From the NCBI GenBank assembly GCA_041675285.1, contig JBAYTZ010000014.1, positions 22,891 to 86,890 of the forward strand: DNA of 64,000 bases, given 5' to 3'. Position numbers and translations under genes: made by a program. This document shows, one piece after another, positions 11,796-30,050 of this stretch. This DNA comes from Candidatus Delongbacteria bacterium. GTDB taxonomy: Bacteria > CAIWAD01. How positions within the stretch are numbered: the first letter of the stretch is position 1; each line of letters opens with the position of its first letter. The notes below the pieces were generated by a model, which saw only the letters and a program-made list of their open reading frames with translations, had not been told where the DNA came from and ran no database searches.

Positions 11796-11819
11796 TCACA
11801 AGGAACTGAAGTGACGTAA

Positions 11820-12830: not shown

Positions 12831-13425
12831 GCCAAATTCTTCTTCAGTGCTGACGAATGGAATCGCGGCGTTCGACTCAGCACGGTCGCCTAACCACTTG
12901 ATCCCATTGAAAATTGACGTCGCTAAGGCGGCAAACCCACTGCTGGAGCGGGCTGAAGGCCAAACAGAGAACAGTTTGCCGAAGACTTGCCTCGGATCCC
13001 CAAGCCCCGCAATGGGGCACTCAACCCATGTACCAGACCCGCTTATCTTGGCTCCCGTGTCTCACGTTGCACGGTTACCTCGGAGTGGATCATGTCCCGG
13101 CTTACATACATCGCGGCCCTCACCATCGCCCGTCCCATTCACCACTGCGCCCTCTCCCGTTCCATTCTGCTGACCCTCAAGTAGCCCGGAGCGACAGTCC
13201 AGGCCTGGTTGATCACCAGGTCTAACGCGGACCGTTCGGCCCGGGCATTCCTGTGCTCATCCCATTTCCGTGTGACACACGGATCGGGTGATCTCTGCCT
13301 ACAGGTCGCCAGGGCGAACTCTGCCCAGTTCATCACCTGTCGGCTCCGGCGCGCACCCAGCGCCCGGGCCTTGATCCCGCTCTCCGGCGAAGCCGCGCCG
13401 GCGCTGACGCAGCGCTGGAGCGGCC

Positions 13426-14124
13426 ATGCTACCCACCAAACGCACCGATGCCCTCACCCCCCAGTCCGTCGCGGACTACTTGACCCTGGCCGCGGAAAAT
13501 GCCGCGCTGCCGGCGACGCTGGAGGCGTTCCTGGCCCTCCTCGGCCCGGAGGGAAAGGACAAGAATGAAGAACGCAAGGCGGCCCTGGCGACGGTCCTCC
13601 AGAAGTTGCAGACAGGGCATCCGGCGCGTGCCAGCATCCAGCTCTGGCTGCTGGTCGCCTATGCCCCCCTGCTCCGAGGGCTTGCCGGCCGCTATTCGCG
13701 AAATGGCAACGAGCAGGCGGATGTCGAGAGCACTGTCGTGGTCGCATTCCTGGAGACCATCCAAGGCACCCCTGAAGCGCGGCTGAAGGATGCCTTTCTG
13801 CAGAAGCGGGTCTTGGACGACACCAAGGACCGGGTCCGAGTTCACCTGGGTCTGCGAGACTACCAGCAAGACAACCGCATCGAGCTCGTGGCGGACGACG
13901 CAGTGCAGGAGGACCGCGCACCGGACGAGCGGGTGGATGGATACGAGTCGCTGCTGGCCCAGATCAATGAGCTGCCCATCGCCGCCAGCGACCGCGACCT
14001 CTTGGTGGGGATCTATGTCTACGGCTACAGCATGGCCGAGCTGGCCGAGAGGTGGCACATCCCCCACGACACCGTCAAGAAGCGCTACCAGCGGCTGCTG
14101 CGGCGCCTGAAGGAAAAACTCTGA
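13426..14124 (+). CDS. sigma-70 family (ECF-like) RNA polymerase sigma factor
   Basis: Region-2-like LWLLVAYAPLLRGLAGRYSR and region-4 HTH YSMAELAERWHIPHDTVKKRYQRLLRRLKE. 232 aa. Confidence 0.65.
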   Translation: MLPTKRTDALTPQSVADYLTLAAENAALPATLEAFLALLGPEGKDKNEERKAALATVLQKLQTGHPARASIQLWLLVAYAPLLRGLAGRYSRNGNEQADVESTVVVAFLETIQGTPEARLKDAFLQKRVLDDTKDRVRVHLGLRDYQQDNRIELVADDAVQEDRAPDERVDGYESLLAQINELPIAASDRDLLVGIYVYGYSMAELAERWHIPHDTVKKRYQRLLRRLKEKL

Positions 14125-14179
14125 CCCCTGTCCCCTTTGGCCTGATTTCCCGCCCTCTTCTAAGGAAACGACCAAGGAG
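14124..14179 (+). promoter_or_regulatory. 56-bp conserved promoter/leader element, copy 1 (ACCCCTGTCCCCTTTGGCCTGATTTCCCGCCCTCTTCTAAGGAAACGACCAAGGAG)
   Basis: Near-identical second copy at 24748-24804. Both end in RBS AAGGAG 6-8 nt before an ATG. Lies immediately downstream of the sigma-factor gene. Confidence 0.55.
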
Positions 14180-14185
14180 ACCCGG

Positions 14186-14473
14186 ATGACCCAGACCGCC
14201 ACCCTGCCCACCACCGCAGACGCCGAAGAGGTCGCCAGCCGCGTCAAGGGAGCTTTCCTCATCCTGACGCTGGAGTTCGGCGGCATCGCTGCGGAGCACA
14301 ACCTCGACACCATCGTGACGGAGCGCGTGTCCGCCTCCATCGAGACGGCCCTCCGTGCCTGTCTGGAGCCCCTGGAAAGCCTGCGCACCAAGCCCGTGCT
14401 CGGGGCAACCCTCAACCTCAGACCCTACCCAGCCATAGCCCGCCTTCTGGGCGTCATCCGTGACACGCAGTAA
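14186..14473 (+). CDS. hypothetical protein
   Basis: 95 aa. ATG preceded by AAGGAG within the conserved leader. Confidence 0.45.
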   Translation: MTQTATLPTTADAEEVASRVKGAFLILTLEFGGIAAEHNLDTIVTERVSASIETALRACLEPLESLRTKPVLGATLNLRPYPAIARLLGVIRDTQ

Positions 14474-14498
14474 TCCACATCAATCTGGAGGTCCCACC

Positions 14499-15269
14499 AT
14501 GGGCCGATTCGACGACATGAACAAGCGCCACGAGCAGCACACCCTGGAGAGTGGCCGCTTCCTCAAATTCGACGACGGAGACAAGCACCTGCTGGTCTTC
14601 CTGGGCTTCCCCCACATCCGCGAGGTGTACTGGGACGGCACCAACTACCACGACTGGAAAGACGGCTGCGGCAAGGAGAAAAGCCTGAAGACCTCGATGA
14701 ACGTGGCCATCATCGAGCTGGTTGGCGGCAGATACATCTTCAAGGCCCTCAAGGTCCTGGAGAACTCCAAGACGTTCTTCAAGCAGGTCAACAAGATGGA
14801 TGTCAAGTACGGCGTCGACAACGAGATCTTCGAAGTTGAGCGCACGGGCCAGAAGGCCAAGGACACCACCTACACGATCCTTCCTGAGGCCCCCATCAGT
14901 CCCGAGCTGCGCGCCCAGCTGGACGCTCTGGAACTCAACGACCTCACCAAGGATCGCGACGACGACGACCAGAAGGGCGGCAGTGGCGGCAGCACCACCA
15001 AGCAGCCCGATCCCCCGGCCATCATCACCCAGGACGAGGGAAACGCCATCATCGAGCGGCTCAAGGCCCTCAAGGCCGCGCTGGGCGACGCCCAGGGCGC
15101 GCAGATGATGGCCGATTTCCTGGCCAAGTTCGGCATCAAGCAGATCCGCCAGCTCCCAGCGGCCAGGCTCAAGGAAGCCCAGCAGTGGATCGCGGGAGAG
15201 GAGGAGAACCTGCGTCACGCCAAGAATGATGGCGGCGTGGGTGCGGCCGAGGCCGACCCCTTCTCCTGA
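14499..15269 (+). CDS. hypothetical protein, possibly an SSB-like ssDNA-binding protein (Gly-rich linker + acidic C-terminal tip ...EADPFS)
   Basis: Start MGRFDD with GGAGG RBS. GGSGGSTT linker. Terminal DPFS resembles SSB C-terminal tips (DIPF). Weak. Confidence 0.4.
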   Translation: MGRFDDMNKRHEQHTLESGRFLKFDDGDKHLLVFLGFPHIREVYWDGTNYHDWKDGCGKEKSLKTSMNVAIIELVGGRYIFKALKVLENSKTFFKQVNKMDVKYGVDNEIFEVERTGQKAKDTTYTILPEAPISPELRAQLDALELNDLTKDRDDDDQKGGSGGSTTKQPDPPAIITQDEGNAIIERLKALKAALGDAQGAQMMADFLAKFGIKQIRQLPAARLKEAQQWIAGEEENLRHAKNDGGVGAAEADPFS

Positions 15270-15348
15270 TCCCGTTCCCCAGGGCCCGGTCGACTTCCTC
15301 ACGTGCTTGTCGACCGGGCCTCACTTCCACCCCAGCAGAGAGCCAATC

Positions 15349-17367
15349 ATGCACCTTTCGGATTCCACTCCCTGGCCGGTGCTGCCAGAGGACCTGCTCA
15401 CCCTGCCCGGCGACCCGGAGATGCAGGAGCCCATTGTCACGGCTGAAGAGGTCTTCGGCCCTGGTGGCCTTCTGTCTCAGCGGCTGCCCGACTACCAACC
15501 CAGGGCCAGTCAACTCATCATGGCCCAGGAAGTGGAGCAGGCCCTAACGGATGGCCGGAGTCTGATGGTTGAAGCGCCGACAGGCACGGGAAAGAGCCTC
15601 GCCTATTCCGTGCCGGCCATCCAGCACGCCCTAATCACTGGGCAGCGGGTGCTCATCGCTACGGCCAACATCGCCCTGCAGGAGCAGCTCACCCAGAAAG
15701 ACCTGCCCTTCCTGCAGCGAGTGCTGCCCGGCCCCTTTCGATTCGCGCTCCTCAAGGGCCGAGGGAACTTTTTATGCAGCAGCCTCCTCCTGGAACAGCG
15801 GAGCATGCTCTTCGCTGGAGTCTCCGGCGAAGACCAGGACGAGTTCGACCGCGTTCTCGACTGGACGAATCGGACCAGCACGGGCGATGCAGGCGAGCTT
15901 CCCTTCAGAGTTAAGCCCCGGGTATGGCGCCACTTCGCCGTCGGTGATACAAGCGAGTGTGCCGGCTGCACGCTGAAGTGCTACCACAAGGCCGCCATGG
16001 TCGAGGCCGAGGATGCCCAGGTGGTGGTCTGCAACTACCACCTGCTCTTTGCCCACCTGAAGGTCCAGGCGGCCACGTGCGGCATGGCCGGCGTGCTGCC
16101 GACCTTTGACGCCCTCATCTGCGACGAGGCCCACGAGGTCCCGGACATCGGCAGCGACTTTGCCGGTGAAGAGATCGGCCGCTGGAGCTTCCGTGGTTTC
16201 AAACGCCACCTCTCACGCGGTGGGTTCGAGGCACTAGACCGCGCCGCCGATGGCCTGTCCAAGGCCATCAAACTGATGGCGTTCCGGCACGCTGCGGCTG
16301 GATCGAACCGCATCAAGCTCCCCGGTCTCATCGACGAGGAACCCATTCTGGAGGCCCTACGCCACGCCTGGCTGGAGCTGCGCGCCCTGCAGGCCCAGTA
16401 CGAGGCGGAAACCAAAGAGCACGCCCAACTGGAACGCCAGAAGGAGCAGTGTCGCCAGCTGGCCCAGCTGGTCCATCGCCTGATCTGGCAGGAGTTCTCG
16501 GATTGGGTCTACTGGGTGGAGCGCCAGGAATCTCACATTGGCGAGAGCTGGAAGCTCAAGGGCAAGCCGGTTTCCATCGCACCCTTCCTGCAACAGGCTC
16601 TCTTGCCCTGGGTTCCGTTGATCGCCACCAGCGCGACGCTGACCACCACCCATGAGGACTTCACCTTCATCCGCGAGCGCATCGGCCTGGACGCTGCAAC
16701 GCGTCAGGTCGTCTTGCCCAGCCCCTTTGACTTCAGCAGCGCGGCCCTCCTGGTGGTGCCTGAAGGGCTTCCTGAGCCCAACGATCCTGCCCACCGCGAC
16801 CGCGTGCAGGGTGAGCTCCACGAAGCCGTGCAGCAGAGCGGTGGCCGGGCCCTCCTGCTCTTCACGTCCAGCCAAGCGCTGAAGGCTGCTCACAGCCTGC
16901 TGGCCCCGGAGTTCGAACGCATGAACTACGCCTGCCACTGCCAAGGCGATGCCCCCTCCACTAAGCTCATCACCCGCTTCAAGGAGGACGTGTCCAGTGT
17001 CCTCTTTGCCACGCGGACTTTCTTCCAGGGCGTGGACGTACCCGGGGAGAGCCTGTCCCTCGTGGCCCTGGACCGCTTGCCCTTCCCCTCGCCAGCGGAC
17101 CCGGTGATGGACTACATCGCCGAGCACGACCCCAAGGGCTGGTTCTTCAAGCACAGCCTGCCCATCGCCCTGATCACCTGGAAGCAAATCTTCGGTCGCC
17201 TGATCCGCCGGCACGACGACCGCGGCGTGGTGCTGCTGCTGGATGGCCGGGTGGGCACGAAGAAGTACGGCAAACAGTTCTTGAAAGCCATCCCGGGCGG
17301 CATGTTGAGCCGCGAGGTGGCGGCCATTGGGTCCTTCCTGGCCGACCCGGAGGACCCTTTCGCATGA
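15349..17367 (+). CDS. DinG/XPD-family (Rad3-like) ATP-dependent DNA helicase with an Fe-S cysteine cluster
   Basis: Walker A MVEAPTGTGKSLAY, DEAH box LICDEAHE, Cys cluster SECAGCTLKCY between the motifs. Ends ...PEDPFA. Confidence 0.8.
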   Translation: MHLSDSTPWPVLPEDLLTLPGDPEMQEPIVTAEEVFGPGGLLSQRLPDYQPRASQLIMAQEVEQALTDGRSLMVEAPTGTGKSLAYSVPAIQHALITGQRVLIATANIALQEQLTQKDLPFLQRVLPGPFRFALLKGRGNFLCSSLLLEQRSMLFAGVSGEDQDEFDRVLDWTNRTSTGDAGELPFRVKPRVWRHFAVGDTSECAGCTLKCYHKAAMVEAEDAQVVVCNYHLLFAHLKVQAATCGMAGVLPTFDALICDEAHEVPDIGSDFAGEEIGRWSFRGFKRHLSRGGFEALDRAADGLSKAIKLMAFRHAAAGSNRIKLPGLIDEEPILEALRHAWLELRALQAQYEAETKEHAQLERQKEQCRQLAQLVHRLIWQEFSDWVYWVERQESHIGESWKLKGKPVSIAPFLQQALLPWVPLIATSATLTTTHEDFTFIRERIGLDAATRQVVLPSPFDFSSAALLVVPEGLPEPNDPAHRDRVQGELHEAVQQSGGRALLLFTSSQALKAAHSLLAPEFERMNYACHCQGDAPSTKLITRFKEDVSSVLFATRTFFQGVDVPGESLSLVALDRLPFPSPADPVMDYIAEHDPKGWFFKHSLPIALITWKQIFGRLIRRHDDRGVVLLLDGRVGTKKYGKQFLKAIPGGMLSREVAAIGSFLADPEDPFA

Positions 17368-19418
17368 GCGCGCCCATCCTGGTGGACAGCCTGATTCGGA
17401 TCCCACTGCGAGACCTTTCCCCACGCGAGCGGGAGATCCTGGAGAGGGCCCTGTCCTACCCCAACCCCGCCTACCAACAGGCCAAGGCCCGGGGAGTGCA
17501 AACCCCGCGCGAGAAGGTGGACGGCGTCTGGCGCGAGATCCCCAAGCGCCTGGACGGCTTCCTGCTGGACGGGCAGGGCCGCTGGTGCATGCCCCGTGGT
17601 GCAGTAGCACTCCTGCGCAAGCACCTTCCAGCCTGGCCGGGCACAGAGGATCGGCGCAGCCGAGCACCCTTGGCGCCCAGCACACTGCCCGCCATGCGTA
17701 TCGAACTACGCCCCTACCAGCTGGCCGCCAAGGAAGCCATGGTCACCCGAACCCAGGGCGTGGTGGTGATCCCCGCCGGCGGCGGAAAGACCGTCACGGC
17801 CCTGGCCGCCTTGGTGGAGATCGGGCAGCGCACGCTGGTTCTGGTCCACACACTAGACCTGAAGGAGCAGTGGGAAGAGGAGCTGGAGGAGCACCTGGGC
17901 GTGGCGCCCGGGAAGATCGCGCCGGTGCAAGTGGCCACGGTGCAGACCCTGGCCAAGATGCATGCGGACGCTCTGACCCGGTACCTGACCGGTTTCGGCT
18001 GCCTGATTCTTGACGAAGGCCACCACGCCCCGGCCAGCACATTCGACCGCGTGGTGGCGTCCTGCCCGGCTACCTGGCGCCTGGCACTGACGGCCACTCC
18101 CGACCGGGAAGACGGCCTGACACCCAAGCTCCTGCACACCTTCGGCCCCATCCTGCACGAGACCCGCCAAGAGGACCTGCTGGCCGCCGGCTACCTGGTG
18201 CCAGCCGTCATCCACGAGGTCCACACGAGCTTCACCTTCCCCTACCAGGGCGCCGAGGACTACCAGGCCTTGGCCGAAGCATTGGCCCGGGACGAGGAGC
18301 GCAGGCGGCTGGTGCTGGACACGCTGGAGGCCCTCTACCAGGACGAGGAGCGCGTGATTCTGGTGCTATCCACCCGCGTGGAGGACCACCTGGTCCCGCT
18401 CTTCGAAGCGGCCAAGGCCCGAGGCATCCAGGGCGAGCTCCTGGCCGGGAAGGTGAAGAAGGACGCCCGGCGGCTCATCCGGCGTGCTGTGCGTGAAGGC
18501 CATGTGCGCGTGCTCTTCGCCTCGACTGTCGCAGACGAGGGCCTCAACATTCCCGAGCTGAACACCCTGCTCCTGACCTTCCCCGCCAAGGCCGAAGGCC
18601 GAGTTGAGCAGCGCGTGGGCCGGGTGATGCGCGCGTCGCCAGGCAAGACCAAGGGCGATGTCTACGACTTCATCGACAGCGCCGTGACCCATGTGGCCAC
18701 GGACGCCAAGCCCTTCCTGCGCCAGTATGCCAAGCGTCGGGCCGCCTACAAGAAGCTCCGGGCCAGCATCGTGAGGGCCGCTCCTGCGGCCCAGGCCGCC
18801 AACAGCGCCCTTGATGCCGGGCTGCTGCATCCCGTGCTCGCCCCGGCGATCCTGAAGCCCCACGCGGGCCGACGGCTGGTGGTGGGCATGGATCCTTCCT
18901 TCACCCACTTCGCTCTGGTAGCCGTGGACGTCGACCTCTGGTGGCCCGTGGCCATGACCACGCTCACCACCGCGCCCAGCGACAAGAAGCTGGGCATCCG
19001 CAAGGCCGACGATGACGGGCGTCGGTTGGAGATCCTGGCACTGGGCATCCGCGACTTCCTGGCCCGATTCCGCCCGGACCTACTCTGCTGCGAAACCCCG
19101 TCCTCCGGCGCCCAAAGCGCCGCGGCCTTGAAGGGCCTGGCCTATGCCAAGGCCCTCCTGGTGACGGCCAAGGTCTACCACGAAACGCCCACCATCTGGC
19201 TCCTGCCCGGGGACATCAAAGAGCGGGTGGGCGGCGGCCTCATTGCCACCAAGCAGCGAGTGGCCCAGTCCGCCCAGGCCTGCCGCGCCAGGGACGGCAG
19301 GCCGTGGTCGGAGGCCGGCTGGGACGCCACCAAGGACAAGAGCGAGCACCAGTTCGACGCCGCGGCGGCCATCCTGGCCAGCGTGAACGAGGACCTGTTC
19401 CAGGCCGTGATTCGATAG
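17364..19418 (+). CDS. SF2 helicase (DEAD/DEAH, type III res-subunit-like) fused to a C-terminal RuvC-like Holliday-junction resolvase domain
   Basis: VVVIPAGGGKTVTALAA (motif I), LILDEGHHAP (motif II), VLFASTVADEGLNIPELN and RVGRVMR (motifs V/VI). C-terminal 170 aa align to RuvC: VVGMDPSF (D), LLCCETPSS (E), DAAAAILAS (DAxDA). Confidence 0.7.
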   Translation: MSAPILVDSLIRIPLRDLSPREREILERALSYPNPAYQQAKARGVQTPREKVDGVWREIPKRLDGFLLDGQGRWCMPRGAVALLRKHLPAWPGTEDRRSRAPLAPSTLPAMRIELRPYQLAAKEAMVTRTQGVVVIPAGGGKTVTALAALVEIGQRTLVLVHTLDLKEQWEEELEEHLGVAPGKIAPVQVATVQTLAKMHADALTRYLTGFGCLILDEGHHAPASTFDRVVASCPATWRLALTATPDREDGLTPKLLHTFGPILHETRQEDLLAAGYLVPAVIHEVHTSFTFPYQGAEDYQALAEALARDEERRRLVLDTLEALYQDEERVILVLSTRVEDHLVPLFEAAKARGIQGELLAGKVKKDARRLIRRAVREGHVRVLFASTVADEGLNIPELNTLLLTFPAKAEGRVEQRVGRVMRASPGKTKGDVYDFIDSAVTHVATDAKPFLRQYAKRRAAYKKLRASIVRAAPAAQAANSALDAGLLHPVLAPAILKPHAGRRLVVGMDPSFTHFALVAVDVDLWWPVAMTTLTTAPSDKKLGIRKADDDGRRLEILALGIRDFLARFRPDLLCCETPSSGAQSAAALKGLAYAKALLVTAKVYHETPTIWLLPGDIKERVGGGLIATKQRVAQSAQACRARDGRPWSEAGWDATKDKSEHQFDAAAAILASVNEDLFQAVIR

Positions 19419-19429
19419 GGAGACTGTCC

Positions 19430-22312
19430 GTGGGGTATCTGGATCTGGTGGAGCGCATCAAGCGCGAGTTGACGATGGACGAGCTGGTCCCGCACCACAC
19501 GGGACGGAAGCCCATCCGCTGCCCGCTCCCCGGCCACGAGGACAAGGACGGGTCCTTCCTGGTCTACCAGGAGACCAACTCCTGGTGGTGTCCCAGCCAT
19601 CCCCACACACGCTGCGGTGGCAGCCCCATCGACTACATCATGCTGGAGCAGCACCTCGACTTCAAGGGTGCCGTTAGGCATGCCGCCGCCCTCAAAGGCT
19701 GGGACCTTGCGCCGCCGTCCGAAGAGGATCGCATCGCAGAAGAGGCCCGCCACAAGCGTGAGGAGACACTCAGCGCCCTGGTGCGCTATGCCCATGGACA
19801 GCTCCTCGCCGACACGGATGTGGCCAAGGAGGCGCGCGAGTATCTGGCAGCCCGAGGCTTCCACGAGAAGCTGCTGGAATACCACCAGGTGGGTCTGCTG
19901 AGCTTGGAGAAGCTCTACCAGGTGCGTGGCACCCACCCCCTCCTGGCGGACTTCAACCAGGCGGATTTCGAAGAGGCCGGTTTGCGAGGGGCGACGGGCA
20001 GCCTCCTCTTCCGGGACACGCGCATCGCCTTCCCCTTGCTGATCCGCCAGCGCGCTGTGGGCATGACCTTTCGCGCCATTCCGGGCTCCAGCGACAAGCG
20101 GAAGTTCGTCCACCTGGCCGGCCAGCCGGCCGGCTTGTGGAACCAGGACGCGCTGTTCAACAAGGACCGAGAGGTGACCGTCGGCGAGGGCGTCCCGGAT
20201 GCCGCCACGCTGGCCGGGTGGGAGATCCCAGCGGTGGGCAACCTGGGCCTGGAGGTGGCCAAGAACGCCCACCTCTTTGCCCACCTACGCGTGGTCACTC
20301 TCGTCTGGGACAACGACAAGGCCGGGCGCAGCCGGGTGGTGAACGCGGGCCGGGCCATCCAGGCCGCCCTGCGCGACGGGGAGGTGCGGATCCTCCACAT
20401 GCCTGGCGAGAAGGACATCAACGACTGGGCGCGAGCCGGGGGAACCAAGGAGGAGTTCCTGACCCTTCTGTGTGGGGCCCCGGATCTCTTGACCTACCAG
20501 GTGCAGCTGCTGCCAGACGTGAAGGCCGGCGAGCGCATGACGCGCGATGCACAGGCCGCGCTGCATGAGCTCCTGGCCGACGTCAAGGGGCTAGACGAGA
20601 ACTTACAGGACGTCTACCTGAAGAGGATTGCAGCCCGGGTCGATTCCAAGCCGCTGACCCTGAAAGGCATGATCCGGGCACAGGGAAAGAAGACAGCCGG
20701 GTCTGGAGCCGACGTGGGTGACTCGACAACACCCACGCTGGTGGCCTCTCAGGCCCCTGCCCTGGGGGCCGTATTCAAGGACGAAATCCCCTACCGGGCA
20801 GCCCTTGGGTTCCAGTTCAACGAGGCCCCCACCGCCAACATCGGCGTCTGGCTCAGGCCGAAGGATGACGAGCCTCTCGCCCCTTTCCTCATCGAGTCAG
20901 TGATCCAGGACGGGAAACCGTCCATCTCCTTGGTCCCCTATGCGGCACGCAGCAGGAAGGCCAAGGGCAAGATCAGCTTCCCCAATGAAGACCTACCCCG
21001 CTGGACAAAGGGCGATGCGCCCTACAGCATGGAGAGCTTGCTGACCGCCCCCGAGGCCAACACGCCGAATGCCGCCCACGTCTTCACGAGGATGCGTAGC
21101 CTGATCAAGCGATTCATCTGGTACCCCGCCGACCACGAATACGACGTCGTGACCATCTGGATCATGATGACCTACTTCTTCCCCGTCTTTGGTCGCGTGG
21201 GCTATCTGCACTTCAACGGCGGGTCGGGATCAGGCAAGAGCCTCAGCCTTCGCTTCATCGAGGCCCTGGCCTTCAACGCACTCAAGACCGCCAACATCAG
21301 CGACGCAGCCCTCTACCGCATTGTCGACGGATCCCGCTCCACCCTCCTGATGGACGAGGCCGAGCGTCTGAGCTTTCCCAAGGCCGGCACGCTGGAGGCC
21401 ATCATCCGCTCCCTCTTTCTGGACTCCTATGCCGAGGGGGCGGTGGTCTATCGGATGAACATGGAGACCGAGCGCCCCGAGCCTTTTGATGCTTTCGGCC
21501 CCAAATGCATGGGCAGCATCAACAAGATCGACCCTGTGTTGAACAACCGTTGCATCACCATCCACTGCCTGCGAAAGGAAAAGGGCGTCCACCTCGCCCA
21601 CCATGCCCAGATGGCTGAGGAGTTTTCACGTCTAGCTTCGCAGCTCCGGGACATGATGCACTGCATGGTGCTGACCCGGTTCCACGATGTCAGGCGAATC
21701 TTCACGGTTGACTTGATGGGGGCCTACACCGAGATCGAGAACCGCGAGTACGAGATCTGGATTTCCCTGATCGCCATGGCCCGCCTGGTGGACCAGGACG
21801 CGGAGTGGGATGAGACGCAGTCCCTGACGGACATCATCCTGAAAGCCCAGCACAGCAAAGAAGTCGAGCGGGAGGAGGAGGCCCGCAGAGAAAGCGTCGA
21901 CATCCTCATCCTGCAGACGCTGCTGAACATCATCACCGGCGATGACCAGGACACGTACGAGGTGCGCGGCGACGCCTGGAAGTACGTAAGCCACAAGCTC
22001 GCCGAGGGCATTCATTCCGAGCTCAACCAGGATGGCACGTGGCCCTTTGAGAAGCCGCTCACAAGCAACCGCCTGACCAACCTGCTGAAAACCCAGCACG
22101 TCATCGAGGAGGCCGATGTCAGCCGGCCCTTCATAGGCGGCAAGCGCGTGCGAGCCCTCAAGATCCGCCACGATAACCTTCGCAAGGCGCTGCAGCGCAT
22201 GCACGGCCTGAGCGCTGAAGACGAGGCTGCGCTTCCTACCGCCACCGAAGACCAAGCAACCCCGCCCCACCCCATGCCAACCCAAACCAAGCAGGACGAC
22301 CTGCCCTTTTGA
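19430..22312 (+). CDS. DNA primase (CHC2 zinc finger + TOPRIM) with a C-terminal P-loop (primase-helicase/D5-like) domain
   Basis: CPLPGHEDKDGSFLVY...WWCPSH zinc finger. TOPRIM EVTVGEGVPDA ... VWDNDKAGRS. Walker A HFNGGSGSGKS. Start GTG 19430 with GGGAGA RBS directly after the upstream stop. Confidence 0.8.
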   Translation: MGYLDLVERIKRELTMDELVPHHTGRKPIRCPLPGHEDKDGSFLVYQETNSWWCPSHPHTRCGGSPIDYIMLEQHLDFKGAVRHAAALKGWDLAPPSEEDRIAEEARHKREETLSALVRYAHGQLLADTDVAKEAREYLAARGFHEKLLEYHQVGLLSLEKLYQVRGTHPLLADFNQADFEEAGLRGATGSLLFRDTRIAFPLLIRQRAVGMTFRAIPGSSDKRKFVHLAGQPAGLWNQDALFNKDREVTVGEGVPDAATLAGWEIPAVGNLGLEVAKNAHLFAHLRVVTLVWDNDKAGRSRVVNAGRAIQAALRDGEVRILHMPGEKDINDWARAGGTKEEFLTLLCGAPDLLTYQVQLLPDVKAGERMTRDAQAALHELLADVKGLDENLQDVYLKRIAARVDSKPLTLKGMIRAQGKKTAGSGADVGDSTTPTLVASQAPALGAVFKDEIPYRAALGFQFNEAPTANIGVWLRPKDDEPLAPFLIESVIQDGKPSISLVPYAARSRKAKGKISFPNEDLPRWTKGDAPYSMESLLTAPEANTPNAAHVFTRMRSLIKRFIWYPADHEYDVVTIWIMMTYFFPVFGRVGYLHFNGGSGSGKSLSLRFIEALAFNALKTANISDAALYRIVDGSRSTLLMDEAERLSFPKAGTLEAIIRSLFLDSYAEGAVVYRMNMETERPEPFDAFGPKCMGSINKIDPVLNNRCITIHCLRKEKGVHLAHHAQMAEEFSRLASQLRDMMHCMVLTRFHDVRRIFTVDLMGAYTEIENREYEIWISLIAMARLVDQDAEWDETQSLTDIILKAQHSKEVEREEEARRESVDILILQTLLNIITGDDQDTYEVRGDAWKYVSHKLAEGIHSELNQDGTWPFEKPLTSNRLTNLLKTQHVIEEADVSRPFIGGKRVRALKIRHDNLRKALQRMHGLSAEDEAALPTATEDQATPPHPMPTQTKQDDLPF

Positions 22313-22323
22313 GAGGATCCATC

Positions 22324-23688
22324 ATGGCTGAGAAGAAACCCCACCAGCTCGCCGACAGCTACCGGCTCATCGGGCTGTCAGCCGAGAACTTCCTGCGGCT
22401 GAAGGCTGTGCGCATCGCCTTCGACCCGAAGGCCAACGCGGCCGAGCTCTCCGGCGAGAACGGCCAGGGCAAGTCCAGTGTCATCAAAGCCATCTGGACG
22501 GCGCTGGGTGGCGCCAAGGTGCTGGAGGACGAGCGCGTGCCGGTCCATGAGGATGCGGACAAGGCCAGCATCACCCTGGACCTGGCGCCGGCCGATGATG
22601 CCCGTGCCGGCAGCCCGCGGCGGATCCGCATTACGCGGACTATCAGCGCCGACGGTGGCTGGGGCCTCAAGATCTGGACCCCGGACAAGGGCAGCTTTCC
22701 CAGCCCCCAAGCCATCCTGGACACCTTCTTCCACACCCTGTGCTTCGACCCCAGCGAGTTCGTGCGCATGGACCAGAAGAAGCGCAACAAGGTCATGATC
22801 GACCTGGCCGGCGTGGGCGACCGCATCACCCCGCTGAAGGTGAAGCGGCAGGGCATCTACGACGAGCGCACGGGGATCAACCGCGACCTGAAGAACGCCC
22901 AGGCGCGCCTGGACGAGATGGAGCCACCGGATCTGGACGTCCCCGCCGAGGTCAGCCTGACCGAGCTGAATCGCCAGATCGATGAAGCCCGTCGGAAGGA
23001 GGAAGCCAATGAGCATGTGCGACGCGAGCTGCAGGGCCTCTACGACGCGCACGCCGAGGCCAAGCAGCTGGTGGCCGACCTGGAGGCCCGGCTTACCACA
23101 GCGCGCGACCGGGTGGAGGAGTTGGTGGCGCTGGGCCAGGAGAAGAAGAAGTCCGTGCTGGCGCTGGTGGACCCAGGCCTGCAGGCCCTGCGCGACAAAC
23201 TGCAGACGGCCGAGACCGACAACGAGCAGGCCCGCACCGCACGCAAGTACGCCGAGGAGACGACCGAAGTCGAGCGCCTGCAGGGCAGGAGCGAAGAGCT
23301 CACGAGCCGGATCGACGCCGTGAATGACGAGATCGCCCAGGTGCTGCTTTCGGCCACGTTCCCCATCCCCGACCTGGCCATCACCGAAGAGGGCGACGTG
23401 GTGTACCGCGGGAAGCTATTTGAGCAGGCGTCCGACGCCGAGCGCCTGGAGGTGTCCCTGGCCATGGGCGCGGCCATGAACCCGCGTCTGCGCTTCCTGG
23501 CCCTGCGCGAGGCATCTATGATGACCGAACGGACGCGGGACCGCGTGAAGGCCTGGGCGGCCGAGCACGACGTCCTGGTCCTCTTTGAGCTGGCCACCAG
23601 CCAGCACATCGGGATCCACATCGAGGATGGCGAGGTGGCGGGCCAGGCTGCAGAAGGCGAGCAGCAGGAGGAAAGCCATGCGGCCTGA
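22324..23688 (+). CDS. RecF/RecN/SbcC-like (SMC-head) AAA ATPase
   Basis: Walker A GENGQGKSSVIKAI, long coiled-coil middle, C-terminal LRFLALREASMMTERTRDRVKAWAAEHDVLVLFE (signature / Walker B-like). Confidence 0.6.
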   Translation: MAEKKPHQLADSYRLIGLSAENFLRLKAVRIAFDPKANAAELSGENGQGKSSVIKAIWTALGGAKVLEDERVPVHEDADKASITLDLAPADDARAGSPRRIRITRTISADGGWGLKIWTPDKGSFPSPQAILDTFFHTLCFDPSEFVRMDQKKRNKVMIDLAGVGDRITPLKVKRQGIYDERTGINRDLKNAQARLDEMEPPDLDVPAEVSLTELNRQIDEARRKEEANEHVRRELQGLYDAHAEAKQLVADLEARLTTARDRVEELVALGQEKKKSVLALVDPGLQALRDKLQTAETDNEQARTARKYAEETTEVERLQGRSEELTSRIDAVNDEIAQVLLSATFPIPDLAITEEGDVVYRGKLFEQASDAERLEVSLAMGAAMNPRLRFLALREASMMTERTRDRVKAWAAEHDVLVLFELATSQHIGIHIEDGEVAGQAAEGEQQEESHAA

Positions 23689-24304
23689 TGGCCTTCGAAG
23701 CCAGCCGGTCACCGGCGGCACCCTCTACCACGAAACCCCTGCGGCCTGGGAGATCCTGGCCATCCTGGGCCGGAAGCTGCTGCCCATGGAAAAGCTGCTG
23801 GAGCTGCTGGCAGGCTTCCATTCGAGCGATCTGCACGCGGCCTATTGGCTGACACGCCGACGCGCCGAACTGGTGCGCCGGGACCTTTTAGTGGACGGTG
23901 AGGACGCCGGTCGGGGCGCCCGCATCCGGGCCCGAAACATCCTGGCCAGGGCGAGCCGCCAGAGCATGTTGGTCGAGCAGACCATGCTGCTTGAAGAGGA
24001 TCTGCGCGCCGTGCGAGAGGAGATTCGGGGCAGCCCGCCGGCAAATATCGGGACCCACCTTCGGTCCAGCCTCCAGGTCTTGGTCCTGGCAGGATCCGCG
24101 CAGCCGCTGTCCGTGCGGCTGCGCCGGCTCTTAGCCATGCACCCGGATCGGCTTGAGGCCGCACGCCTTCGCATGCTGACCCTGCCGGACAATGCATGGC
24201 TTCGAAAGGGCTGGCCCAGCAGGCTGGAGCGCCCCCACATGCGCAGGGTGCTGGAGCTGGCCTCGCAACTCCAGCGTGAGCTGTTTGCCAACCGGGAGAC
24301 GTGA
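23678..24304 (+). CDS. hypothetical protein
   Basis: ATG with GGAGGAAAG RBS, in frame within the longer track ORF 23585..24304. Confidence 0.4.
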   Translation: MRPDGLRSQPVTGGTLYHETPAAWEILAILGRKLLPMEKLLELLAGFHSSDLHAAYWLTRRRAELVRRDLLVDGEDAGRGARIRARNILARASRQSMLVEQTMLLEEDLRAVREEIRGSPPANIGTHLRSSLQVLVLAGSAQPLSVRLRRLLAMHPDRLEAARLRMLTLPDNAWLRKGWPSRLERPHMRRVLELASQLQRELFANRET

Positions 24305-24721
24305 GTGGCGTCGGCCAAGAAGAAACGTGGACCCGGAACACCCCCCCGGGAAGAGCGGAACCTGGACCCCCACTGGACGAACTGGGAGGTACTGGCCGCC
24401 TTTGGCGAGGATGAGCGTGGTGACACCTACCTCGACGCCGTCAAGCGTTTCTGCTGTCTGCCCAGCGAGGAGGACGTCTGGCTGGACGAATTGGTGCGTG
24501 CTGCCCATCGAGCCCACGACCGTGCCGGCTCCTGCCAGACGGGCCGCATGGCGGCGTGGCGCGTTTTCCGCCGGGCCGGCATGATCCTGCTGCATGACTT
24601 CATGGAAGACCTGCAGGTTGAGACCGGGAGGCTTAAGCCCCGGGCCGCGTTTTACTGGCCAGCCAAAGCCATGACCGTGGTTATCACCACGAACTGGCGG
24701 GTGGACACCGATGTGAAGTAG
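24305..24721 (+). CDS. hypothetical protein
   Basis: 138 aa. GTG start immediately after the upstream stop. Confidence 0.4.
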   Translation: MASAKKKRGPGTPPREERNLDPHWTNWEVLAAFGEDERGDTYLDAVKRFCCLPSEEDVWLDELVRAAHRAHDRAGSCQTGRMAAWRVFRRAGMILLHDFMEDLQVETGRLKPRAAFYWPAKAMTVVITTNWRVDTDVK

Positions 24722-24747
24722 CCCCCAGGTTCCTGCCTTTTTCTTCC

Positions 24748-24804
24748 ACCCCTGTCCCCTTTGGCCTGATTTCCCGCCCCCTTCTAAGGAAACGACCAAG
24801 GAGG
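24748..24804 (+). promoter_or_regulatory. 56-bp conserved promoter/leader element, copy 2
   Basis: Identical to copy 1 except 1-2 nt. Followed by AAGGAG and ATG 24813. Confidence 0.55.
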
Positions 24805-24812
24805 CGGCAGCC

Positions 24813-24947
24813 ATGCCCAATCATTCCAAACGCCACCCGCGCTTCTACCTCGCCCACCTCCTCCGGGCCACCACCCTGGGCATCGTAGAACTCAGCAACC
24901 AGGCCGCATTCCAGAAGGCCCCTTGCGTCGAGGACGCAATCGCATGA
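24813..24947 (+). CDS. small ORF (44 aa) driven by the conserved leader
   Basis: AAGGAG-N8-ATG. Not in the ORF track (short). Stop overlaps the next start (ATGA). Confidence 0.35.
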   Translation: MPNHSKRHPRFYLAHLLRATTLGIVELSNQAAFQKAPCVEDAIA

Positions 24948-25216
24948 GCCGCGCATTGACGCCCGTACAGCCGCAATCGGTGGACGAGATAGTGGTTGAA
25001 ATCCACAGACAGCTCGGCTACTCGGTCAGGCCACCCGCGCTCTTGACAGCCAGCGAAGTGGGCAGCGTCCTGCGCATCAAGGAGGCGACCCTACGCAACT
25101 GGCGATCTGCCCAGCGACCAGGTCTGCCGTTCACACGCATTGGGAACTCGCCCATGTATCGCCCCCGCGACGTCGCTGCCTTCATCCTGTCCTGCACCGA
25201 AGGAGCCTCCCAATGA
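24944..25216 (+). CDS. AlpA/excisionase-family helix-turn-helix DNA-binding protein
   Basis: LLTASEVGSVLRIKEATLRNWRS...LPFTRIGNSPMYRPRDVAAFI matches the AlpA/Xis-type HTH pattern. Confidence 0.5.
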   Translation: MSRALTPVQPQSVDEIVVEIHRQLGYSVRPPALLTASEVGSVLRIKEATLRNWRSAQRPGLPFTRIGNSPMYRPRDVAAFILSCTEGASQ

Positions 25217-25677
25217 ACACCGCCCTGTTTGCCGTGACTGCTGCTTGCGCCGCAGTTGCCTGGTACGGGCACCGCACCCGCATCGCCCGTGCCCTGTGCG
25301 AGGACCGCACACTATGGCGCGCCAACCTGACCCGCGGGCTGGCGGAGGCATCTCAGGCCATCGCCCAGACATCGGAGGCCGCGGCCGCCGCTCTCAAGCT
25401 GGTGGCCGAGGCAATTCAAGGCACCGGGGAGATGGGCGTCCTGGAGTCCAGCGTCCTGGCCGAGCGCGTGGCCGAAGGGGCCAGCCTGGACACGCGGGCG
25501 GCCCAGGCCCCCAGTGTCGCGCGGGCCTTGGTGATGCTGCAGGAGATCGCCGCAGCGCGCGAGCTCATCCGCATGATGGAGCCCACCGGCGCCCGGGACA
25601 CCACCCTGCAGGACGACGCCATCCAGCACCTGGACGCCGCCACGGCGGCCTTCCTGTGCACGCCCAGGACCAACTGA
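25213..25677 (+). CDS. hypothetical protein
   Basis: 154 aa, Ala-rich; translationally coupled. Confidence 0.4.
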   Translation: MNTALFAVTAACAAVAWYGHRTRIARALCEDRTLWRANLTRGLAEASQAIAQTSEAAAAALKLVAEAIQGTGEMGVLESSVLAERVAEGASLDTRAAQAPSVARALVMLQEIAAARELIRMMEPTGARDTTLQDDAIQHLDAATAAFLCTPRTN

Positions 25678-25705
25678 CCACATCCCAATTCCAATCGGAG
25701 GATCC

Positions 25706-26326
25706 ATGCGCCGAGGCAAGAATGACATCGAGGGCCAGGTGGTTCCACTGAATCAGGTGACCACCCCTACCACGGGCAAGGACCGCAAGGGCGGTCCCAC
25801 CGACATCGATTGCAGGGCCTATGACCGGCTGATCCACGAGGTGCAGCATCTGGAGGAGCTCACAGGCTGCGCCGGCTGGGGCCGCTTCTTCGGTGGGCTC
25901 TTGCGCGAGGCCGACGAGGCTCGCACCCAGCTGGAGTTCGCCGAGAAGCCCCGCGACGTAATCAAGCTGCAGGCCACCATCGCCCTGGTGAAAAGCCAGC
26001 TCAAGAAGCTGCACCAGCCGGTGGAGGACTTAAGCGCCATGCGCACCAAGTGGCCACTGTTCACGGGCGAGATGCCCTGGCGCGCGGACTTCGATGAGCC
26101 CACCGGTCGCGTGACGCTGAACTGGGCTGGGCAGGGCCCCGCGCCAGAGAGTTATCACCCCATCACAGATCCCGAGGACGGTGAGGACGCGCCCGCAGGG
26201 GACCAGCCCGCGGAGCCGGCCGCCCTACCCAGTCGGCCCTGCCTCGACGAGGACGACCCGGACGAGGAAGAGGACCTGGACACCACCGGCCCCGGTCCCG
26301 AGCCAGACGACCCCTTCGGGAACTGA
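25706..26326 (+). CDS. hypothetical protein (acidic C-terminal tail ending DDPFGN)
   Basis: 206 aa. Confidence 0.4.
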   Translation: MRRGKNDIEGQVVPLNQVTTPTTGKDRKGGPTDIDCRAYDRLIHEVQHLEELTGCAGWGRFFGGLLREADEARTQLEFAEKPRDVIKLQATIALVKSQLKKLHQPVEDLSAMRTKWPLFTGEMPWRADFDEPTGRVTLNWAGQGPAPESYHPITDPEDGEDAPAGDQPAEPAALPSRPCLDEDDPDEEEDLDTTGPGPEPDDPFGN

Positions 26327-26329
26327 CCC

Positions 26330-26677
26330 ATGACCACCCAGGACATCGTCACCCAGCTGCGCACCCTCCATGGCTACACCGACCTCGACGCCAAGCGCGC
26401 CGTGCGTGACACGCTGGACGTGCTGCGCCACATGCTGGACGAGCTGGACGCGGGCGAGGGCTTGACGCTTCCCGGGATTGGCCGCTGGCTGTGCCGGGTG
26501 AAGGCCAGGCCCCATGGCGCGCATGGACTGGAGATCGTCTGGAACAACAGCCGGCAGATCAGCGAGGGGATGGCAGCGCGCACCCTGCCCGCGGATGACC
26601 CCAGGGTGGTCAAGGCGCTGAAGAAGAAGAATGGGCCCTGGCGCCCGTGGGGCCAGGACTGGAGCCCGGGAGAATGA
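26330..26677 (+). CDS. possible HU/IHF-like DNA-binding protein
   Basis: GEGLTLPGIGRWLCRVKARPHG parallels the HU arm (G.V.L.GFG.F.VR.R.AR). Weak. Confidence 0.35.
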   Translation: MTTQDIVTQLRTLHGYTDLDAKRAVRDTLDVLRHMLDELDAGEGLTLPGIGRWLCRVKARPHGAHGLEIVWNNSRQISEGMAARTLPADDPRVVKALKKKNGPWRPWGQDWSPGE

Positions 26678-27108
26678 GCATGCACCGGCACCCAGCGCCC
26701 CTCAGCCCCACCGCCGCCGAGCACCTGGCCCTGATCGCCGACGCCCTGCACGTCCCACGCGACACGCCTGGGCATGAATTGGTCCAGCTGGTTTCCGTGC
26801 GCTGCAGGCCCATGGACAGGCAGCACCTGGACCGGCTGGTCACGGGAAGCCTCAAGAGCGCCATTCACGCCCATGGCCCAATCACCCACGAAGGCATCTG
26901 CAGCACGGCCAGACGCATGTCCGGCCAGATCCACGCAGTCCTTTGCGCCCAACACATGGGCCTGGACGACCCCGGGCAGGAGCTGCCAAGCGGGCCCGCA
27001 GCCATGCCGAACCCCCCAGAGGATGCGCCGCCCTACAGCCCGACTTGGTTGTCGGCAACGGCCAGCTCCATCAACACGCCACCCCACAACGAGAGGACCA
27101 CACCATGA
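26674..27108 (+). CDS. hypothetical protein
   Basis: ATGA-coupled to neighbours. Confidence 0.3.
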   Translation: MSMHRHPAPLSPTAAEHLALIADALHVPRDTPGHELVQLVSVRCRPMDRQHLDRLVTGSLKSAIHAHGPITHEGICSTARRMSGQIHAVLCAQHMGLDDPGQELPSGPAAMPNPPEDAPPYSPTWLSATASSINTPPHNERTTP

Positions 27109-28526
27109 GTGTTGAGCCCGTTTCCCAGGAGATGGCCACCCAGGCCGCCGGCGCCTGGCTGGCGCGCTTGCCCGAATCTCAAGCCGCCGGTCGGGCAGGC
27201 GTCACCGTCTTGGAGACGATGGATCTGGACGACGACCACCCAGGCTTCCACGTCGTTTCCAGCGGCATCACCACCGTCCTTGTCGCTGGCGACCTGCAGG
27301 CCCAACCGATCCTGGGCTGGGCGGATCATGGCGACCTGCAGGGCCTGGGCGAAGACATCCCGGAAGGCCTGCGCGAGCTTCTCGCCGCCTGGGGCCAGCA
27401 GATCCTCATCACCCGGCAGGCACCGCCGGAGCGCGCTGGCGGAGACAACCCCAACCGCGCCAAATGGGAGCACCTCCTGGACACAAGTGGGCGCGCCCAG
27501 GAGGAAGAGCAAGTCAAGGTGATCCCGCCGCTCCTGACCGCGCGCTGGGGCCAGGGCGCAGGCTGGAACGCCCACTGTCCCATCGATGCGGCCGGCCCCG
27601 CGGGGCGCGCCTATGCGGGCTGCGTGGCCACGGCCATGGGCCAGGTGCTGCATCACCATCACCACCCTTGGCGGGGACGAAACATCCAGTCCTACGAGCA
27701 CGACAAGTACGGCGAAATCAGCTTGGATTTTCTTGAGGAGACGCCGGCCTGGAAGGCGCTGGCCGACCAGGGTGCCACAGACGCTGCAGCGCGCCTGCTC
27801 TTCATGGCCGGCGTTGCCGCGCGCATGAACTACGGCTACCGGAGTTCCACGGCCAGCTCCAGCAACATCCCCGTCGCCTTGCGCGGCTTCCTGCGCTTCG
27901 CCGACACCACCCGTCTGGTGTGGCGGGCGAGCACGCCGCCGGAGATTTGGGAGGAGCTGATTCGGGAAGAGCTTGATGCCGGTCGCCCCATCATCCACCG
28001 CGGCCAAGGGGCCCAGGGTGGGCACGCCTTCAACCTGGACGGCTGGCGGTCGGACGGGTTCAAGCACGTGAACTTCGGCTGGAACGGGTCCTACAACGGC
28101 TGGTACACCTTGGATGACATCACCCCGGGCAACTGGAGCTTCACCAGCACGCAGGGCATGGTGGTGGGCATCCAGCCGCGCGAGGAGGAGCTGCTTGCCC
28201 CACCCGATGGTGAGCATGGCGTGCCGTCCGGCGGCATCACGCTGCGCTGGCGCCCGCAGCCAGGCATGGCGCGCGTGGAGTTGGATGTCTCCACCAACGC
28301 CCAGTTCACACCTGTCATCCGCCGGGCCGTACTCCCGGGCGGCATCACCAAACACTTTCTGACCGGCCTTGCGCCAAGCGCGCGCCACTTCTGGCGTCTC
28401 ACCTGGGTAGACAAGGTGGGCAACCGCCGCACCACGCAGGCGTGCAGTTTCGTCACCGGATCCCAGCCTACCACCGGCAGACCCGGTCAGCACTCCACAA
28501 CCATCAAGCCGGAGATCCTGCCATGA
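27105..28526 (+). CDS. peptidase C10 (streptopain/SpeB-like cysteine protease) with a propeptide and a C-terminal beta-rich (Ig/FN3-like) domain
   Basis: Catalytic Cys block YAGCVATAMGQVLHHH (SpeB GCVATATAQIMKYH). His block GGHAFNLDGWRSDGFKHVNFGWNG (SpeB [24 protein letters not shown]). RBS GAGAGGA before ATG 27105. Confidence 0.85.
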   Translation: MSVEPVSQEMATQAAGAWLARLPESQAAGRAGVTVLETMDLDDDHPGFHVVSSGITTVLVAGDLQAQPILGWADHGDLQGLGEDIPEGLRELLAAWGQQILITRQAPPERAGGDNPNRAKWEHLLDTSGRAQEEEQVKVIPPLLTARWGQGAGWNAHCPIDAAGPAGRAYAGCVATAMGQVLHHHHHPWRGRNIQSYEHDKYGEISLDFLEETPAWKALADQGATDAAARLLFMAGVAARMNYGYRSSTASSSNIPVALRGFLRFADTTRLVWRASTPPEIWEELIREELDAGRPIIHRGQGAQGGHAFNLDGWRSDGFKHVNFGWNGSYNGWYTLDDITPGNWSFTSTQGMVVGIQPREEELLAPPDGEHGVPSGGITLRWRPQPGMARVELDVSTNAQFTPVIRRAVLPGGITKHFLTGLAPSARHFWRLTWVDKVGNRRTTQACSFVTGSQPTTGRPGQHSTTIKPEILP

Positions 28527-28912
28527 AGCACGCCATCCGCACCGCTCTGCTCCTCTTGGTCCTGGTCGGAACCAGCGCCGCCTGGGACGCGCCCGAGCTC
28601 ATCACGCCCATGCTGGGCCAGCGCCACGTCCCCACTCAGGGCACGCTCTTCGCATGGGTGCCCAAGGCCGGTTACCACACCTGGATCTTGCAGGTGGCCG
28701 ACAACCAGGGCCTGCTCCACCCCTTTGTGGATGTGGAGACCCATGCCACCAACATGCACTGCCCGACGCCCTTGCCCGCTGCCGCCCACCTTTACTGGCG
28801 GGTCCTCTACGTCAACGACGAGGGTCAGGTCTACTGGTCCGGCACGGGGCACTTCTGGACCACGCCGGTCATGCCTCGACACATCCCGGCCACCAGCCTG
28901 AGCATGGACTGA
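28523..28912 (+). CDS. secreted hypothetical protein (signal peptide); possible partner or inhibitor of the C10 protease
   Basis: MKHAIRTALLLLVLVGTSAAWDAPE signal peptide. ATGA overlap with the protease stop. Confidence 0.45.
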   Translation: MKHAIRTALLLLVLVGTSAAWDAPELITPMLGQRHVPTQGTLFAWVPKAGYHTWILQVADNQGLLHPFVDVETHATNMHCPTPLPAAAHLYWRVLYVNDEGQVYWSGTGHFWTTPVMPRHIPATSLSMD

Positions 28913-28996
28913 CCGCCGCGCCGTGAATCGGCTCATCTGGGGCAGCCGGCCCTGTCCCAACCACCCCTCATCCTGACCCAGCACGAAAGGACCCCA

Positions 28997-29590: not shown

Positions 29591-29604
29591 AAACCGGAGC
29601 GACC

Positions 29605-30036: not shown

Positions 30037-30050
30037 AAGGGCGGACAAGT

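Follow-up and report, generated by a model that had tools for sequence, protein, structure and literature searches.

The window analysed here, a stretch of 64,000 nucleotides (nt), is part of a 104-kb metagenome contig (ENA ERZ27247358) from a Candidatus Delongbacteria metagenome-assembled genome (MAG; phylum Candidatus Delongiibacteriota per NCBI). It contains an integrated element that is probably a temperate-phage-like prophage, which is the simplest reading because terminase, portal and MuF genes lie at 49.7-57.3 kb. Within this element, a 56-bp sequence stands in two nearly identical copies ahead of two operons, the first copy directly behind a gene for a predicted divergent sigma factor of the extracytoplasmic function (ECF) type. 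The features at the locus are:

13092..13184, + strand: conserved upstream open reading frame (ORF) of 30 amino acids (aa), MSRLTYIAALTIARPIHHCALSRSILLTLK, with its own GGAG Shine-Dalgarno sequence
13185..13425, + strand: predicted structured noncoding leader, with a multibranch domain closed by GACAG (13193-13197) with CUGUC (13337-13341), then further hairpins
13426..14124, + strand: predicted divergent ECF-like sigma-70-family factor, 232 aa, with a family-specific N-terminal extension of ~75 aa
14124-14179, + strand: repeat copy 1 (P1), with CCTGTCC at 14127-14133, a variable spacer at 14134-14145, TTTCCCGC at 14146-14153, TT at 14158-14159, GGAAA at 14164-14168 and the ribosome-binding site AAGGAG at 14174-14179
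14186..24721, + strand: P1 operon, eight tightly packed genes
24748-24803, + strand: repeat copy 2 (P2), with CCTGTCC at 24751-24757, TTTCCCGC at 24770-24777, GGAAA at 24788-24792 and AAGGAG at 24798-24803
24813..24947, + strand: 44-aa ORF, truncated remnant of a nucleoside 2-deoxyribosyltransferase-like gene
24944..32665, + strand: P2 operon, with an HTH_17 excisionase/AlpA-like protein, small conserved proteins, an HU-like protein and a C10 peptidase

The 56-mer, ACCCCTGTCCCCTTTGGCCTGATTTCCCGCCC(T/C)CTTCTAAGGAAACGACCAAGGAG, occurred exactly twice in the window, both times on the + strand, and no match was expected by chance (0 in 100 shuffles, with ≤3 mismatches allowed). The duplicated leader-like sequence that an initial annotation had noticed ahead of two operons was therefore real. 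Its position for copy 1 was correct, whereas copy 2 ended at 24803 and not at 24804, and the identity that had been called perfect was 55/56, the sole difference being T/C at position 33. Identity between the copies ended exactly at the repeat borders, and their flanks were unrelated. The first base of copy 1 was the last base of the TGA stop codon of the sigma gene (14122-14124), and its end was 6 nt short of the ATG at 14186. Copy 2 was immediately preceded by the T-rich tract CTTTTTCTTCC, began 26 nt past the stop codon (24719-24721) of a 138-aa gene and ended 9 nt before the ATG of the 44-aa ORF. A coding function of the motif was rejected, with the ORFs overlapping the repeat being antisense only, of a sort common in GC-rich DNA, and the flanks of both copies being unrelated. 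A profile of the 46-nt core (nhmmer) gave exactly two matches per element and nothing further, either in the window or across ~390 kb of related loci including host flanks (next best E = 2.5). Neither of the findings that the initial annotation had named as counter-evidence, a motif lying within a longer coding ORF or being widespread at non-promoter positions, was obtained. The two-block pattern alone showed no excess of sites (6 found, 3.65 expected).

The P1 operon encoded a 95-aa helical protein, a 256-aa protein, a DinG-like helicase, a ResIII/XPB-like helicase, a primase, an AAA_23 (SbcC/RecF-like) ATPase, a 208-aa protein and the 138-aa protein. The P2 operon further contained genes for an Rv2179c-like exonuclease, an HTH_23 protein and a PD-(D/E)XK exonuclease (annotation from Pfam and PHROG). 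Both operons were syntenic in related elements. A full-length homologue of the 44-aa ORF in the related element L009 (137 aa, 14130-14540) matched phrog_355 (E = 6e-21), with its N-terminus aligning with the window ORF, and the version in L008 was cut to 29 aa (~12470-12560).

Related elements were located in other contigs through homologues of the sigma-like and AAA_23 proteins, and were syntenic with the element of the window (L003/L009, L004/L008, L005, L006/L007, L021, L022, L023, L024, L026-L028 and L029). The motif directly followed the sigma stop codon in all 10 lineages, with sigma proteins 45-67% identical to that of the window. A second copy was present at the same syntenic position in every element with sequence there (7/7: the window, L008, L009, L021, L022, L023 and L024); in three further lineages, the motif was seen at the first position only. 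All copies had in common an ungapped layout of CCTGTCC, 12 variable nt, TT(C/T)(C/G)CC(G/T)C, N4, TT, N4 and GGAAA, in which the second block was TTCGCCGC or TTTCCCGC. The spacing CCTGTCC-N30-GGAAA was ungapped with blocks invariant across copies, and TGTCC-N16-CC(G/T)C was found in 17/17 distinct copies. The 12-nt spacer between blocks 1 and 2 varied freely, even between the copies of one element (L021, L022). A start codon followed 15-29 nt past GGAAA with a Shine-Dalgarno sequence in between, and the motif was always oriented like the downstream genes. Neighbouring genes dropped to 44-60% nucleotide identity while the motif blocks stayed invariant. Copy identity ran through AAGGAG in the subgroup of the window and stopped right after GGAAA in the other subgroup. 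The 56 bp described initially are therefore a unit in the window's subgroup and not in the distant relatives, in which the shared unit of ~44 nt begins with CCTGTCC, finishes with GGAAA and excludes the ribosome-binding site.

Copies within one element were identical at 37-43/43 positions, and copies from different subgroups at 23-30/43. Several substitutions were common to both copies of an element: CT (window), GG (L008) or GT (L009) at positions 27-28, and A/T at position 12 in these three elements. Likewise, the element-specific variants CATTAG in L022 and AAAAAC…TCGCAG in L024 occurred in both copies. In L021 and L022 the differences between copies were confined to the spacer that separates blocks 1 and 2, and positions 14-35 were identical, a pattern better explained by selection keeping the downstream halves matched than by simple conversion of a tract.

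Single Delongbacteria MAGs contained three to four related elements, each with its own motif variant. One MAG (WC326) held the window, L008, L009 and an L005-type element (tags WC326_01620, _02080/_02110, _08435/_08470 and _12865), and GCA_030685015.1 (contigs 58, 88 and 100) held L023, L024 and L029. The cargo upstream of the sigma leader differed among co-resident elements, including for example Fic, SIR2-HerA, FGE-sulfatase, CHAP and DUF5677 genes. The sigma coding sequence was the most divergent segment among co-resident elements (67-76% nucleotide identity, replication genes 82-90%), and no mosaic breakpoint was found at P1 or P2 when these elements were compared. The pattern of variation leaves room for specificity or orthogonality of the sigma factors. 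It is equally compatible with the motif being read by another factor, for instance a protein that binds it as an operator.

A degraded remnant of the element (L026-L028; JGI 3300044629, 3300043803; SRR21524777) kept the upstream ORF, the leader, the sigma gene and P1, with only two tiny ORFs before a stretch of host-like genes (LTD/Por secretion tail, Na/H exchanger). The remnant and the window were 89% identical in the leader and only 61% in the sigma coding sequence, a contrast that points to mosaic exchange.

The protein encoded directly ahead of P1 is, from its profile matches and modelled fold, a divergent ECF-like sigma factor with a family-specific N-terminal extension. NCBIfam TIGR02937 (sigma70-ECF) matched residues 75-232 over the whole model (E = 2.2e-10), PHROG 1740 ('RNA polymerase sigma factor') matched at E = 6e-8, and Pfam Sigma70_ECF matched at E = 1.4e-4 (22.3 bits, cut-off 21.1), with weak matches to region 4. 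The AF2 model (22 homologues) had a pLDDT of 82, and all top Foldseek matches in the PDB were sigma factors. The sigma-2 domain (regions 2.1-2.4) was present, as the family profile aligned residues 75-232 to P0167, a bona fide ECF sigma retrieved by that profile (Pfam Sigma70_r2 E = 7e-19), and the predicted structure agreed; the sigma-4 helix-turn-helix (HTH) domain was present in the predicted fold of the 232-aa protein. The near-threshold match to TIGR02937, the sigma folds returned by Foldseek and the reach of the profile to P0167 bear out the initial description of this gene as ECF-like. A profile search of 1.8 billion representative proteins retrieved only ~10 close relatives, plus canonical ECF sigmas over residues 75-232. 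Several family members were named sigma-70 family by NCBI, and the N-terminal extension of ~75 aa was highly conserved within the family. The 95-aa product of the first gene of the P1 operon was considered as a possible anti-sigma factor, an idea that gained no support: its AF2 model (pLDDT 71) was a generic three-helix fold with no informative fold match, and it had no family matches.

An upstream ORF of 28-31 aa was kept in frame in 10/10 related elements, with GGAG 7-8 nt before each and with its stop codon always 240-246 nt ahead of the sigma ATG. Its C-terminal LSRS-type motif was conserved, and it was called as a gene in L001 and L004. Over the ~330 nt 5' of the sigma ATG, mean nucleotide identity was 75% in the leader, as against 67% in the sigma coding sequence and 61% in the next gene, and leader indels were not multiples of three. 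The consensus structure of the leader (RNAalifold) had 70 pairs, 11 of them with compensatory changes; these statistics come from 10 sequences of ~6 independent lineages, with the structure taken from the same alignment. Paired cells amounted to 94.4%, against 35-44% with the partners slid. Changes on both sides occurred in 11 pairs, against 5.8±1.6 in shuffles (reached by 0/500) and 1-4 when slid, and the covariation score was above all 500 shuffles. Pairing was asymmetric between strands (94.4% on the + strand, 83.4% on the - strand), from 91 G-U cells, and the minimum free energy of the window sequence had a z-score of -4.05. In 10/10 sequences, the Shine-Dalgarno GGAG of the sigma gene (13417-13420) was part of the 3' arm of a terminal hairpin (13395-13421). 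The leader had no match in Rfam 15 (best E = 4.6 and 8.2, far under gathering scores), and no Rfam match at E ≤ 1 was found in 13000-26000. The evidence for the leader structure, drawn from comparative sequence analysis, is good, not final. The leader is a candidate new cis-regulatory RNA which may gate prophage development.

A sequence inside the leader resembling the start of the motif (CCTGTCGGCTCCGGC) was rejected as a third promoter, with blocks 2 and 3 absent and no nhmmer match. Approximately 200 nt 5' of the upstream ORF (12870-13091 and relatives) were also conserved, with CTTGATCCCATTGAAAATTGAC…, a CCGCTGCTGGAGCGG hairpin and TATCTTGGCTCCCGT. This segment may contain the early promoter or operator for transcription of the sigma gene; a sigma-70 consensus was not clearly recognisable within 12870-13091.

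The explanation that we favour, with about even confidence, is that the temperate-phage-like element has twin promoters, P1 and P2, in the two repeat copies, and that polymerase carrying the element-encoded sigma factor most likely reads them. The reading as a bipartite promoter is based on the succession of conserved block, free spacer and conserved block, in fixed orientation ahead of start codons. A consensus scan found no sigma-70-type promoter in the motif (and none in 12.8-25.3 kb), and the GG/GC spacing required of a sigma-54-type promoter was not conserved in it (by eye). The lack of sigma-70 hexamers in the motif, while ordinary host-type TTGCTT-N18-TAATTA promoters are present elsewhere in the element, argues that the motif needs a non-primary sigma. 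Recognition of the motif by the sigma-like protein is suggested by their co-occurrence: the sigma gene and P1 were strictly adjacent in every lineage, both were absent from L010-L012, which are distant relatives of the replication module, and both were retained in the degraded remnant L026. The initial proposal of a dedicated promoter or operator is in part sustained, in that the sequence heads two long co-directional operons, is far better conserved in relatives than the coding sequence around it and is restricted to this family of elements.

CCTGTCC would be the -35-type element and TT(C/T)(C/G)CC(G/T)C the -10-type element, with 16 nt from TGTCC to CC(G/T)C. Transcription would start near TT-N4-GGAAA and give a 5' leader of ~20-30 nt carrying only the ribosome-binding site. 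P1 would drive the replication operon of 10.5 kb that immediately follows the sigma gene, and P2 the next operon, with the excisionase-like HTH protein, nucleases and others (recombination/processing). As the sigma gene is upstream of P1 and not under it, the circuit would be a feed-forward cascade and not an autoregulatory loop. Synthesis of the sigma factor would be gated after transcription starts by a translational gate, made up of the upstream ORF and the leader hairpin masking the Shine-Dalgarno sequence.

Several points weigh against twin promoters read by this sigma factor. The window protein scored just under the TIGR02937 cut-off (40.4 vs. 42.9 bits). Most ECF groups recognise a -35 element with an AAC core and a CGT-like -10 element; the putative -35 element CCTGTCC has no AAC core, and the -10 assignment is not CGT-like, GC-rich and weakly defined. 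The link between the sigma and the motif is, at the level of sequence, guilt by association across only ~5-6 independent lineages. Conservation ran well past a normal -10 element, through TT-N4-GGAAA. Positions 14-35 were element-specific (CATTAG in L022, TCGCAG in L024), which suggests gene conversion or a second reader, the latter being a protein that binds an operator or a signal acting in RNA. In L025, which encodes an AAA_23 protein 48% identical to that of the window, there was no motif at the P2 position; its contig ends before the sigma position.

Such a second reader is central to an alternative that we regard as unlikely, in which the motif is an operator or loading site for another DNA-binding protein of the element, overlapping a host-sigma promoter, and the variants are immunity or specificity groups. 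The candidate readers would be the HTH_17 AlpA/excisionase-like protein, the HTH_23/CI-like protein or a Q-like antiterminator, and several HTH proteins are indeed encoded just downstream. Positions 14-35 being the same in both copies and different between elements is what operator-repressor or Q/QBE pairs show, and specificity would matter in a MAG with at least 4 related elements. The low-GC element L010, which has no sigma gene of this family, contained four copies of AATAACGGCGGTTTTCCCTTGACA (7141-7170, 9026-9055, 9381-9410 and 12179-12208), an operator-like sequence joined to a -35 hexamer, TTGACA. However, the motif itself had neither a sigma-70-type -10 nor a -35 element, and it had no dyad symmetry across lineages, with the UUUCC/GGAAA inverted repeat being lost in L006, L021 and L022. 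An operator would also leave the strict adjacency of the motif to the sigma gene unexplained.

Action of the motif in RNA is improbable. The repeat had no consensus structure (RNAalifold, 16 copies: -0.16 kcal/mol, 2 invariant pairs, no covariation), its single-sequence folds were no better than shuffles and unlike each other (z = +0.28, -0.79, -1.90 and -0.96), and it had no Rfam match; the riboregulatory leader offered initially as an alternative for the 56-mer was rejected on these results. They also count against a linear or weakly structured signal, such as a nut/boxA-like site, a protein- or sRNA-binding leader or a translation-initiation module, in transcripts that begin 5' of the motif, such as read-through transcripts of the sigma gene. 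With no terminator between the sigma gene and copy 1, the latter is probably transcribed, but in L009 a terminator-like hairpin with a T-run directly preceded copy 2, so that transcription must restart there. The identity reaching through the ribosome-binding site in the window's group is in line with an RNA signal, and in the other group it stopped before that site. Two copies that are alike within and divergent between elements mirror lambda nutL/nutR, yet the boxB-like hairpin of 5 bp and 5 nt that is possible in L023 and L005 was broken in L022, L024 and the window's group.

It is very unlikely that the identity within elements merely results from intergenic linkers undergoing gene conversion or recombination with each other, with no meaning beyond a generic ribosome-binding region. 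The element-specific substitutions in both copies of the window, L008, L009 and L024 would be expected from conversion. Against it, the blocks were invariant across lineages with sigma proteins ~50% identical, despite the divergence of the neighbouring genes; the spacer diverged in L021 and L022 while the blocks and positions 14-35 did not; elements residing together in one MAG kept distinct variants; and P1 and P2 showed no mosaic breakpoint. That the direct repeats, which do bracket a functional module, are att-like recombination sites around an excisable or exchangeable 10.6-kb replication cassette is scarcely credible, with no recombinase inside the module, copy 1 abutting the sigma stop codon and both copies abutting start codons in all lineages, and no relative with a single copy and without the module seen, except the degraded L026 remnant.

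The remaining features of the window place the locus within the element:

1-5 kb: host glycosyltransferase genes, 70-75% GC
5184-6353: P4-type tyrosine integrase
6.9-12.9 kb: low-GC cargo region
33.6-45 kb: defence-like cargo block, with a PLD-SNF2 helicase, RhuM, a Sel1 protein, a type ISP restriction-modification enzyme and an AAA_21 protein
After the defence-like cargo, - strand: second integrase
49709-51310: large terminase
51320-52846: portal
52846-57285: MuF-like head protein

A degenerate motif scan found a 65-kb IMG/VR viral contig identical to the relative L009, and 100% identical across copy 2. A protein search of IMG/VR gave no match for the sigma family, a megablast search of INPHARED phages gave no match, and the GTDB representative genomes had no match for the exact 24-mer or the AAA_23 protein. 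Literature searches found no account of the element family or of regulation in Delongbacteria phages.

Each low-GC (41-47%) cargo gene block was followed by an imperfect palindrome of ~130 nt (7815-7950, 10525-10660, 11667-11810 and 12697-12830). The outer arms, GCATAAC…GTTATGT/GTTAGGC/GTTAGGT, were similar to integron attC R''/R' boxes, and folding as single-stranded DNA gave z = -2.7 to -4.3. The arrangement resembles an array of attC cassettes in a prophage cargo slot, with no integron integrase adjacent. In the defence-like cargo, between the RhuM-like gene and the type ISP restriction-modification gene, nine to ten tandem units of 108 nt (37920-39203) encoded a protein with ten Sel1 repeats. 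An 81-nt unit occurred three times (46029-46109, 47078-47158 and 47990-48070) and carried, on the - strand, the sigma-70-type promoter TTGCTT-N18-TAATTA, a GGGAG ribosome-binding site and the small-gene start ATGACGAA, making up an array of paralogous small genes on that strand.

Among known systems, phiEco32 gp36 and Salmonella phage 7-11 gp47 are phage sigma-70-family proteins that redirect the host core polymerase to few phage promoters, gp47 recognising the bipartite promoter GTAAtg-N16-aCTA (PMC8948821). The present system is alike in having a phage-specific consensus ahead of gene blocks, with a 16-nt spacing as in TGTCC-N16-CC(G/T)C. The phages phiEco32 and 7-11, both lytic podophages of enterobacteria, have eight late promoters of another consensus, whereas the element described here is integrated and temperate, belongs to a candidate phylum and has two putative sites only, ahead of replication and recombination operons and not late genes, with a conserved unit that is much longer (~44-56 nt). 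SigN (ZpdN) of the Bacillus subtilis plasmid pBS32 has its own regulon on pBS32, and sigN has an autoregulatory promoter that depends on SigN as well as a SigA promoter under LexA repression (PMC6751061). As with SigN, a sigma factor of a mobile element would have a regulon confined to the element and linked to its replication. Unlike sigN, the sigma gene had no copy of the motif upstream, and its control is apparently through the structured leader and the upstream ORF.

Canonical ECF factors (group 4) are matched in having sigma-2 and sigma-4, in the end-to-end alignment with TIGR02937 and in the candidate bipartite promoter with a ~16-nt spacer. The differences from them are the extra conserved N-terminus of ~75 aa, the score just under the curated cut-off, the -35-like block CCTGTCC without AAC, no recognisable anti-sigma gene and a sigma gene that is not downstream of its own promoter. 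The lambda nutL and nutR sites (boxA/boxB) are two near-identical short sequences, alike within an element and divergent between related elements, and likewise head two operons; nut works as RNA via a conserved boxB hairpin, whereas here there was no conserved hairpin and promoter-like blocks were present. The rpoS and rpoH mRNAs have structured 5' leaders that control translation of the sigma factor. The long leader described here is predicted to be similar in occluding the sigma ribosome-binding site, and differs in having no sequence or Rfam relationship to them and in the conserved upstream ORF that precedes the structure; its trigger may be a ligand, temperature, an sRNA or translation of the upstream ORF. 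What is unusual here is the long unit, the two sites, the absence of AAC, the matched variation within elements, and the placement of the sigma gene, which follows a structured leader and lies ahead of the promoter that it would target.

More speculatively, and with a rather low probability, the sigma or a second factor of each element may co-evolve with its own promoter pair, forming orthogonal circuits that would insulate co-resident prophages (at least 4 in the WC326 MAG), and the sigma may be switched on by a new class of structured leader RNA with its upstream ORF, which would sense a host signal and serve as an induction switch. The sigma leader is the more unexpected by-product of the analysis, being a conserved upstream ORF together with ~240 nt of structured RNA that is not in Rfam. 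The candidate sigma/promoter pair is compact and well defined (44-56 nt, two sites, several natural variants), and may provide orthogonal parts; the natural variants would offer a test of the evolution of promoter specificity among co-resident prophages. Element-encoded sigma factors with private promoters are a classic timing strategy, which the present candidate would extend to temperate elements of the almost unstudied Candidatus Delongiibacteriota.

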